From the NCBI RefSeq assembly GCF_045037415.1, contig NZ_CP173438.1: a stretch of 64,000 nucleotides of DNA. One strand, 5' to 3'. Source of the stretch: Escherichia coli (GTDB lineage Bacteria; Pseudomonadota; Gammaproteobacteria; Enterobacterales; Enterobacteriaceae). Within the stretch, counting starts at the first letter, position 1. Every line of letters begins with the position of its first letter. Shown here piece by piece: positions 36,001 to 39,000 of this stretch. Made by a program: the position numbers.

Positions 36001-39000
36001 TGAACCAGGATATCGATGAACTGCATTTTGCCCCGTTGAAAATCGACCAGCAACTGGCAACCGTAGCTGTGATTCACCAGCAGCATATGCGCAACATTGC
36101 GCAGTGGTTGCAGGCAAACGGCATCACCCGCGCTACCGTCGCGCCGGACTGGATGTCCATTCCTTGTGGGTTTATGGCTGGCGATGCGCGACGGGTTATC
36201 TGCCGCATCGATGAATGCCGGGGATGGAGCGCCGGGCGGGCGCTGGCTCCGGTCATGTTCCGCGCACAGCTCAATGAGCAGAATTTACCGATTTCACTAA
36301 CCGTGGTCGGCATTGCACCGGAAGAACTGTCTGCATGGGCTGGTGCGGACGCGAACGCCTGACCGTTACGGCTCTGCCCGCCATTACCACTTATGGCGAA
36401 CCGGAAGGGAACCTGCTAACAGGGCCGTGGCAGCCTCGTGTCAGCTACCGAAAACAGTGGGCGCGCTGGCGGGTGATGATTCTGCCGATATTGCTGATTC
36501 TGGTTGCGCTGGTAGTGGAACGGGGCGTGACGTTATGGAGCGTCAGCGAACAGGTGGCGCAAAGCCGCACCCAGGCGGAGAAACAGTTCTTAACGCTATT
36601 CCTGGAGCAGAAGCGGATTGTGAATTTACGCTCTCAGATGACGATGGCGCTGAAAAAATATCGCCCACAGGCCGACGATACCTGGCTGCTCGCAGAATTG
36701 TCAGCGATCGCCAGTACCCTGAAATCAGCGTCACTTTCCGACATCGAAATGCGTGGTTTCACCTTTGATCAAAAACGCCAGACGCTTCACCTTCAGCTAC
36801 GGGCTGCGAACTTTGCCAGCTTCGACAAACTGCGTAGCGCACTGGCGGCAGATTATGTTGTGCAACAGGACGCGTTACAGAAAGAGGGTGATGCGGTTTC
36901 CGGCGGCGTAACGTTGCGGAGGAAATAACATGTTACGCGATAAATTTATTCACTATTTTCAGCAATGGCGTGAACGCCAGTTAAGCCGTGGCGAACACTG
37001 GCTGACACAACACCTGGCGGGGCGTTCTCCGCGTGAAAAAGGCATGTTACTGGCAGCGGTAGTGTTCCTGTTTAGCGCCGGATATTACGTCCTCATCTGG
37101 CAGCCGTTGAGCGAACGGATAGAACAACAGGAGACGATGTTGCAGCAGCTGGTGGCGATGAACGCGCGACTGAAGAGCGCCGCGCCGAATATTATTGCGG
37201 CGCGAAAATCCGGCACGACAACGCCAGCACAGGTATCGCGGGTCATCAGCGACAGCGCTTCCGCGCACTCTGTGGTCATCAAACGGATTGCCGAGCGTGG
37301 GGAGAATATTCAGGTCTGGATAGAACCTGTGGTGTTTAATGACCTGCTGAACTGGTTAAAGGCGCTGGATGAAAAGTACGCGCTGCGGGTGGCACAAATT
37401 GATGTCAGTGCGGGTGAGAAGCCTGGGATGGTGAATGTGCAGCGACTGGAGTTTGGGCGGGGGTAGGTATTGCCATTTCCTTAACCCCACCTGATAACCC
37501 TTAGCCCAATGGTGAGTGCGGAACTGTCAAACCCGCTCACCGGGCTGAGTTTCGATGTAGCAAGAATTATCTCCCTCCAGACCACCACGGAATATTCGGT
37601 AACACTGAAGGAACCTGTTTTTCACCATGTAGCCTTCGTTAATCGACACCTTTCTCAGACTGTAAAGTTGCTTAAGTGTTTTGACACATTATGATTATTA
37701 ATAGTTGTAATAAATCATTGAGTAACAATTGATAGGCCAAAACATATAGGATAATTCTAGTGTGATCTGTATTTTGTGTAACCTGGAAGTTAGTAAAATT
37801 CCTGGAGATAATCAGAAAGGGAATTTCAAATAAGCATAATAATTTCCAGTGAAACTATTCGTCGATTTTAAGAAATGTCTGCTCAGGTATATCTACTGAG
37901 GGATGGTGTTGGTTGTAACACTGGTTAAAATAAACACACAAAAATAATCAAGATGTATATTTTAATCGACAAAAATAATTACTCACGGAATTATTGATGG
38001 GTGTTAAATAACACCGTTTAAATGTGATGTAAATCACAAATGTGACTGTAAAGAGGGTGCTGTAGATATAAATAAGAAGTACATGAGTGAATTTTAAATA
38101 GGGAAATAGTTTCTTGCTAAACAATTTATTGGTAATCAATCGCATGCGTTCTGGTTTGAGATAGATTACAGGTGTTACTACGCATAAAATTCATGGGTGG
38201 TATTATAATCAAGTAGTTAACAGTAATAGTGAAAAATAATTTCTTGCGAAATTAGCGGCCCGTTTTGAATAAGTGTGTTCCGGAGTAATCCAGAACGCAT
38301 GCTGCTTTACATCTTTTTCAAGCCATATTGGTTAAGCAAAAAGAAGTAGAAATAATTTCCTGAGAAATTAACTCAACATTCTGAAACGGCCAGTTTTCTG
38401 AAATTACCAGAAGACCGAATACATTCATGCCTGAAGAATGGATTAGAAGAAACGAGACGGAAATAGATCTATTTATCCCTGCGGAAATAATTTCTGCTGA
38501 AATTGTTTGCGGCTATTAAAAAGGTCAAACCGTCTGACTAAATTTTATCCAGTTACAAACAAGTATTACCTCCAGTGTATTGGTAGCTGTTAAGCCAGGG
38601 GCGGTAGCATACCTGAAGAGAATAGGATCACATCACCAAATGGCAAGAAGTGGATTTGAAGTCCAGAAAGTCACCGTAGAGGCATTATTTCTACGAGAAA
38701 TACGAACACGCTTTGGTAAGTTCCGTCTGGGATATCTGTGGGCGATTCTCGAACCCTCTGCGCATTTGCTGATACTGTTGGGCATTTTTGGTTACATTAT
38801 GCACCGCACGATGCCAGACATCTCGTTCCCGGTGTTTTTACTTAATGGCCTGATTCCCTTTTTTATCTTTAGCAGTATCAGCAAACGTTCTGTAAGTGCT
38901 ATTGAAGCGAACCAGGGGCTGTTTAATTATCGCCCAGTAAAACCCATCGATACGATCATTGCGCGCGCCCTGCTTGAGACGCTGATTTACGTTTCTGTTT

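Follow-up and report, generated by a model that had tools for sequence, protein, structure and literature searches.

The kpsM leader of an E. coli capsule locus contains two short arms that are reverse complements of each other and lie well over a hundred nucleotides apart. Do these arms form a long-range helix that controls transcription into the capsule genes, or is there another reason for their presence? A sequence-only reading of the region had favored the first option. It proposed that the arms pair in the leader RNA into a large structured element relevant to antitermination control. The question is of some weight, as group 2 capsules are key virulence factors of ExPEC, and the window (the whole 64-kb stretch of DNA that was analysed) carries an E. 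coli locus for a group 2 capsule, of the CFT073 (K2) type.

The leader and its antitermination element

The intergenic region is bounded by the end of yghD (GspM family) at 37466 and the start of kpsM, which encodes an ABC transporter permease (38641-39416, plus strand). The 941 bases 5′ of kpsM show 99.9-100% identity with CFT073 and related genomes. The region 3 promoter (PR3) and its control by RfaH and ops have been characterized in the capsule types K5 and K1, where region 3 is subject to ops-dependent RfaH antitermination (PMC8960920). According to that source, transcription from PR3 in K5 starts 741 bp upstream of kpsM, and H-NS footprints are found at −135 to −21 and at +141 to +219. 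The long untranslated region is reported to moderate the transcription reaching kpsM (Xue et al. 2009, as cited in PMC8960920).

When the K5 mapping is carried over by alignment with the short-allele K5 strain EcN, the start site in the window falls at approximately 37783. This transferred start site gives a transcribed leader of about 857 nt. Both arms of the repeat lie inside the transcribed leader under any plausible start site.

The known RfaH loading site of this leader is the JUMPstart RNA (RF01707, 38573-38611, plus strand; 53.6 bits against a gathering score of 35), which includes the ops element GGCGGTAGCATA at 38600-38611. It is separate from the inverted repeat. In a permissive Rfam scan of 37400-38900 (E up to 10), JUMPstart was the sole real match and the rest was noise. 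Over 38141-38303, neither RF01707 nor any other Rfam model was matched, even at E up to 10.

The inverted repeat

Direct reading and a repeat search both confirm the presence of the inverted repeat. It consists of 13 perfect pairs between 38142-38154 and 38290-38302, both on the plus strand, and the arms are separated by a 135-bp segment (38155-38289). The left arm, gcatgcgttctgg (which equals GCATGCGTTCTGG), constitutes the 5′ half of the module-3 hairpin described below, while the right arm, CCAGAACGCATGC, constitutes the 3′ half of the module-4 hairpin. The left arm had originally been read as 14 bases long. Thirteen of these were upheld; the c at 38141 has to be dropped, as it faces a t at 38303 and stays unpaired. 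When one mismatch is allowed, the left arm continues to 38157 and the right arm extends from 38287, which yields a repeat of 16 nt (38142-38157 / 38287-38302, 94%).

Within the 64-kb window, exact copies of the 13-mer occur at these two places only. The 858-nt leader was also shuffled 1000 times with preservation of the dinucleotides, and the longest perfect inverted repeat measured at least 13 nt in 0.6% of these shuffles (P=0.006). The repeat is real, and it is more than simple chance.

A leader of six diverged modules

Six modules, diverged in sequence and 116-136 bp long, make up the leader. Every module starts with a 20-bp dyad, for which the consensus is ATAATTTC-N4-GAAATTAT. The six dyads, all on the plus strand, are located at 37837-37858 (dyad 1, ATAATTTC-N4-GAAACTAT), 37973-37994 (dyad 2), 38104-38125 (dyad 3), 38234-38255 (dyad 4), 38350-38371 (dyad 5) and 38485-38506 (dyad 6). 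Their starts are spaced by 136, 131, 130, 116 and 135 bp. A search of the 64-kb window with the dyad pattern returned six matches where 0.6 would be expected, and five of the six are dyads of the leader. The remaining leader dyad, number 3, is the most diverged (ATAGTTTC-N4-TAAACAAT); with more than three mismatches it falls outside the pattern matches. The dyad was compared with the NagC/Mlc, SlyA, RcsAB and LysR-type boxes, and no convincing fit was seen.

The dyad is not the only feature that recurs. An alignment of the six intervals places a second hairpin or palindrome approximately 40-65 nt after each dyad, in register. It reads CUCAG/CUGAG in module 1, UGUGAU-GUAA-AUCACA in module 2, GCGUUCUGG... 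in module 3 and GUUUUCU...AGAAGAC in module 5. In module 4 it is formed by GUGUGUUCCGGA-GUAA-UCCAGAACGCAU (38273-38300, plus strand), a local hairpin in competition with the long-range helix, as both require the right arm. The module itself is the 116-bp unit from dyad 4 to dyad 5 (38234-38349, plus strand) and holds the right arm. In module 3, the consensus folds show a local hairpin at 38141-38174 (plus strand), in which 38141-38153 pairs with 38162-38174. This hairpin is intact in most alleles and is weakened in the window allele, which has a T at 38162 and an A at 38168. The hairpins of modules 3 and 4 have paralogous stems, G(C/T)GTTC(T/C)GG and CCAGAAC(G)C. Each arm had been described as lying roughly 40-50 nt downstream of a dyad. 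This is roughly right: from the first base of the dyad to that of the arm, the distance is 38 nt for dyad 3 (38104) and 56 nt for dyad 4 (38234).

From these features we infer that the modules arose by duplication. With the minimum score set to 30, Tandem Repeats Finder did not detect them, the units having diverged too far, and their common origin therefore rests on the dyads, the spacing and the positions of the hairpins. A periodic common motif is present, as is an indel of one whole unit with its breakpoints in that motif (see below), as in a diverged tandem module array.

Distribution of the leader and loss of module 4

The leader is carried by 1621 of 5426 complete E. coli genomes. The 251-nt stretch 38100-38350 was used as query and matched 1603 E. 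coli genomes, with a median of one place per genome, i.e. the segment is single-copy. Full coverage of the query was found in 468 of the 1603 (long allele), and the remaining 1135 (71%) match its first 62% only (short allele). Outside E. coli, an 18-mer that is invariant in the leader was sought in genome contigs. This exact-match scan, which would miss diverged relatives, returned one E. coli genome (E69) plus nine chance matches in unrelated taxa, and thus no evidence for the leader in other species.

Alignments with EcN, strain 1428, MIN14 and W224N demonstrate that the short allele lacks exactly 116 bp, namely 38234-38349. The deletion junction is situated inside the repeated AAATAATTTC. 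The right arm of the inverted repeat is consequently missing from the short alleles, including those of the K5 strain EcN and the K1 strain W224N. The latter is a cerebrospinal-fluid isolate with a yghD-kpsM spacer that is 117 bp shorter than in the window; its kpsMT genes are followed by neuB and neuC, and it is therefore assigned to K1.

The most divergent alleles, with 77% and 88% identity, are long. The short form is therefore probably a derived deletion, and yet it is the commonest allele. The deletion apparently took place by unequal crossing-over between dyads 4 and 5.

Folding and conservation of the arms

If the arms formed a functional long-range RNA helix, this helix could organize a large structured domain that affects Rho access or RfaH-dependent antitermination. 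We regard this as very unlikely. For the comparison of alleles, 16 full-length long-allele leaders and, for the 251-nt stretch (38100-38350), 20 different long-allele sequences were collected from complete genomes and from metagenomic contigs matched by the dyad-4 pattern.

In the window allele, the arms do pair. In silico at equilibrium, the helix is part of the MFE structure of the 878-nt leader, with a pair probability of 0.77-0.78, and in the leaders L002 and L054 the probability is 0.95 upon folding in full. A helix of this kind would also suit the report by Xue et al. 2009, as summarized in PMC8960920, that the long untranslated region modulates transcription to kpsM. Furthermore, both the segment (z=−2.35) and the whole leader (z=−4.6) fold better than shuffles. 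The latter value is what an abundance of dyads would lead one to expect, and it says nothing specific about this helix.

The prediction does not extend to most other alleles, however. Of the 16 long-allele leaders, only three are predicted to form the long-range helix. In the other 13 its probability is at most 0.01, and both arms reside in local hairpins (0.5-0.99). The proposed pairing into a large structure thus applies to the window allele and fails in these 13 leaders, as well as in the 71% of genomes that lack the 3′ arm, K5 and K1 strains among them; a lack of stable pairing in the full leader is found only outside the window allele. Three short alleles, also folded as full leaders, keep the module-3 hairpin at 0.82-0.89. 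The same trend is observed upon folding in the 251-nt context. The local partner of the right arm is 38273-38284. RNAalifold chooses the local hairpins over the long-range helix, on 20 as well as on 19 alleles, and in these consensus folds the left arm pairs with 38162-38174.

Two allele classes favor the long-range helix, and each has point changes that harm the 3′ half of the module-3 hairpin. The window allele has the T at 38162 and the A at 38168; in the AVS0971 type, column 65 of the alignment has changed from G to A. Folding during transcription would favor the local hairpin of module 4.

Covariation across kps leaders had been suggested as a check on the pairing, and none was found: no arm pair has changed on both sides. 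In the long-allele alignment, 94.6% of the alignment cells of the long-range helix are paired, and none of the measures derived from the pair counts exceeds column shuffles (500 of 500 shuffles equal). The single-sided changes in the arms, most of them wobble-compatible on the plus strand (five G-U types), mix such transitions with plain mismatches, which is about what neutral transitions alone would give. For the local hairpins, five G-U against zero A-C changes were counted in module 4 and seven against four in module 3, so that a wobble bias as a sign of RNA-level selection is equivocal.

The conservation of single positions gives a similar picture. The arms vary among alleles, and 62-69% of their positions are invariant against 62% in the leader background. 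For the dyad half-sites this value is 84%, for the dyad spacers 21% and for JUMPstart 95%. The arms do not rise above the leader background, and it is the dyad half-sites that are constrained. Moreover, ops/JUMPstart is a separate element located approximately 270 nt downstream. The role in antitermination control that the sequence-only reading had assigned to the repeat is hence unsupported, given the frequent absence of the 3′ arm, the lack of covariation and the separate position of ops.

The repeat as a probable by-product of modularity

Considering the above, it is likely that the repeat is a by-product of the modular kpsM leader and not a dedicated regulatory helix. Modules 3 and 4 each bear a paralog of the second hairpin, so that the 5′ half in module 3 is complementary to the 3′ half in module 4. 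A repeat of this length would then appear without the need for any long-range function. In most alleles, each hairpin half would pair with its own local partner. In the window (CFT073/K2-type) allele, the lineage-specific changes 38162 C>T and 38168 G>A would remove the local alternative in module 3, and the A at 38144 would make the cross-module match perfect. Together, the lost alternative and the perfect match would shift the equilibrium model to the 13-bp cross-module helix. This helix would be dispensable, as module 4 appears to have been lost by unequal recombination in about 71% of the kps-positive E. coli.

Selection for the long-range pairing may have acted in the K2-type lineage, because the cross-module match (13/13) beats either local stem in this allele and because of the low chance probability of the repeat (P=0.006). 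At the level of the DNA, the perfect repeat proves recombinogenic, as the 161 bp that it bounds are inverted in one strain, most simply by a rare spontaneous event between short inverted repeats.

Inversion of the segment between the arms

The predicted inversion junction was built and searched against the complete E. coli genomes. In E. coli TUM1226 (NZ_CP135719.1), it is matched over 100 nt at 100% identity. The 161 bp of 38142-38302 are inverted in this strain with 100% identity, while the flanks are collinear and 99.8-99.9% identical. Direct alignments stop at 38157 and restart at 38287, which puts the breakpoints within the perfect inverted repeat. The repeat is therefore a DNA inversion substrate. 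The inverted state was found in one of the 468 long-allele genomes. In metagenomes, the dyad-4 pattern retrieved 48 loci, of which approximately 23 are true kps leaders, all of them collinear.

The inversion fits a rare spontaneous, non-programmed event between short inverted repeats. Judging roughly from typical rates in the literature, we would consider a single event of this kind unremarkable among a few hundred genomes that have also diverged by point mutations in this region. A single inverted genome fits a rare accident and a strongly biased switch alike, however, and cannot distinguish between the two.

The arms could alternatively serve as the recombination sites of a programmed inverton that renders capsule expression phase-variable in K2-type strains, which we judge to be very unlikely. 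In its favor, the arms enclose a short stretch of a capsule regulatory region, both orientations have been seen in nature (in TUM1226 the flip coincides exactly with the arms), and an isolated, invariant TATAAT (38204-38209) is found inside the segment. The extreme rarity of the inverted form (one genome, and none of the approximately 23 metagenomic kps contigs) speaks against a switch. In addition, a scan for promoters and terminators gave nothing above shuffles and no promoter-like or terminator-like site within 38155-38289, and the main promoter is located outside the segment. The arms themselves vary among alleles with a conservation that does not exceed the background. According to the CFT073 annotation, the 9 kb on either side contain glc, gsp and kps genes and a frameshifted IS4 transposase but no recombinase gene. 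A recombinase could still act in trans; UPEC strains encode trans-acting recombinases of the Fim type.

There is only a slim chance that the 161-bp segment is a true invertible element, with a strong orientation bias, of the kpsM leader in CFT073/K2-type ExPEC. If it were, a flip would move dyad 4 and thereby change the spacing from 130/116 to 86/160 bp. It would also turn the internal TATAAT toward PR3, and capsule expression could in this way be switched or tuned in part of the population.

Finally, it is extremely improbable that the match is coincidental or that the arms are the terminal inverted repeats of a small MITE-like mobile element: the arms do bound a discrete 161-bp unit and the palindromic GCATGC does inflate self-complementarity, but the chance probability is low (P=0.006), E. 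coli genomes have the segment in a single copy, no target-site duplication is seen in the bases next to the arms (AATC | TGCT), and the natural indel is 38234-38349 instead of the repeat-bounded unit. The MITE reading was rejected on the single copy and the missing target-site duplication.

Comparison with known systems

The by-product reading can be placed beside several systems that the repeat resembles in part. JUMPstart/ops (RF01707) occupies the same leader and the same strand, and mediates antitermination for kpsMT and region 2. The inverted repeat, in contrast, is located 270-430 nt further upstream, outside the model, and it varies between alleles or is missing from them, whereas JUMPstart is almost invariant. 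The present analysis removes the long-range RNA helix as a candidate conserved control element of the kpsM leader.

Attenuators and the expression platforms of riboswitches offer another parallel. Here, too, one strand has a choice of partners, as the right arm can pair with 38273-38284 or with the distant left arm, and point mutations shift the predicted balance between local and long-range pairing. In the kpsM leader, however, this choice is not linked to any terminator, anti-terminator or ribosome-binding site further downstream, and the alternative pairings are not conserved as a pair.

On the DNA side, inversions between short repeats have been documented in E. coli, for instance an inversion of 24 bp between repeats of 8 bp (PMC4272514, citing Schofield et al. 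1992). The TUM1226 inversion is similar in that a short perfect repeat (13-16 bp) is present at both breakpoints, little DNA lies between them, a single strain is homogeneous for the inverted state and the event is rare. It differs in its location in the leader of a virulence gene, and by analogy may have proceeded by RecA-independent template switching or strand mis-alignment.

The invertible promoter switches (fimS, hyxS, ipuS and the capsule promoters of Bacteroides) likewise consist of a short non-coding segment bounded by inverted repeats, upstream of genes for surface structures and seen in both orientations. In the kpsM leader, however, an adjacent recombinase and a detectable internal promoter are missing, the bias is extreme (1/468), and most alleles are devoid of the repeat.

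The leader is best described as a copy-number-variable array of dyad-plus-hairpin modules. It shares with other copy-number-variable tandem repeat arrays the periodic motif and the loss of a whole unit with breakpoints in the repeated motif. It differs from them in the divergence of its units, of which only the dyad, the spacing and the hairpin position are left, which is why Tandem Repeats Finder overlooks them. The more informative features of the leader are the constrained dyads, the polymorphism of five versus six modules and the natural inversion. Should leader length, module number or orientation affect capsule output, allele typing would become relevant to differences in virulence between strains; the module count is five in loci of the K1/K5 type and six in those of the K2 type.

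Conserved dyads in the kpsM leader

The dyad ATAATTTC-N4-GAAATTAT is present six times in the kpsM leader, each copy being about 22 nt long and starting at window positions 37837, 37973, 38104, 38234, 38350 and 38485, i.e. with a period of approximately 130 bp. Within the 64-kb window the copies are confined to this leader. Their conservation is uneven: across 19 alleles, 84% of the half-site positions are invariant, compared to 21% of the 4-nt spacers and 62% of the remaining leader. Such a pattern is the signature of either a putative dimeric protein operator or a small hairpin whose loop is free to vary.

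When the 19 leaders are folded to a consensus, 10 pairs change on both sides. The clearest of these is 37913/37920 in the small module 1 hairpin GGY-UGUAAC-RCC, where 10 alleles have U-A and the other 9 have C-G. This pair may reflect selection at the RNA level, or it may consist of two linked SNPs that divide two haplotype groups.

At the position of the second hairpin in module 2, a candidate CRP-type site (AAATGTGATGTAAATCACAAAT, 38020-38041) is found that is near-consensus when compared to TGTGA-N6-TCACA. No allele differs in the halves TGTGAT and ATCACA, whereas the bases at the centre are variable. The site falls within the transcribed leader. The region 3 promoter PR3 is not known to be under CRP control.

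EMSA and ChIP have demonstrated binding of YbdO, a regulator of the LysR type, to "the kpsM promoter", a term used in that study for the 300 bp that precede kpsM (PMC9141747). The equivalent fragment in the window (38341-38640) is made up of transcribed leader with dyads 5 and 6 and the JUMPstart element, and is not the mapped promoter.

Module number, inversion and indels

The number of modules is polymorphic. The 116-bp module at 38234-38349 is carried by 468 of the 1603 E. coli genomes with the leader and is missing from the other 1135, so that leaders with six and with five modules exist. Six are present in K2 (CFT073 type), and five in K5 (EcN) and K1 (W224N). The breakpoints of this indel lie inside the repeated AAATAATTTC.

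The 161-bp segment bounded by the arms of the inverted repeat is naturally inverted in E. coli TUM1226 (NZ_CP135719.1), the sole case among 5426 complete genomes. Positions 938-1098 of the TUM1226 sequence (L067) correspond to window 38142-38302 in inverted orientation at 100% identity, and the flanks are collinear. Inside the invertible segment lies a TATAAT hexamer (38204-38209) that is unchanged across all alleles; it has no recognizable -35 and is not called by the promoter scan.

Other indels are found in the leader alignment A3. Dyad 5 is split by a 10-bp insertion in the allele class of 77% identity (L003, L038, L046 and L047; columns 575-584), a 17-bp deletion immediately precedes dyad 1 in one metagenomic allele (L010; columns 40-56), and MIN14 (L007) contains a 5-bp insertion near window 38560 (columns 794-798).

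The gsp genes immediately upstream are decayed in the CFT073 annotation, with gspK partial and gspL frameshifted, and they adjoin a frameshifted IS4 transposase. This stretch occupies positions 5113-8229 of the CFT073 sequence (L068), upstream of the window region.
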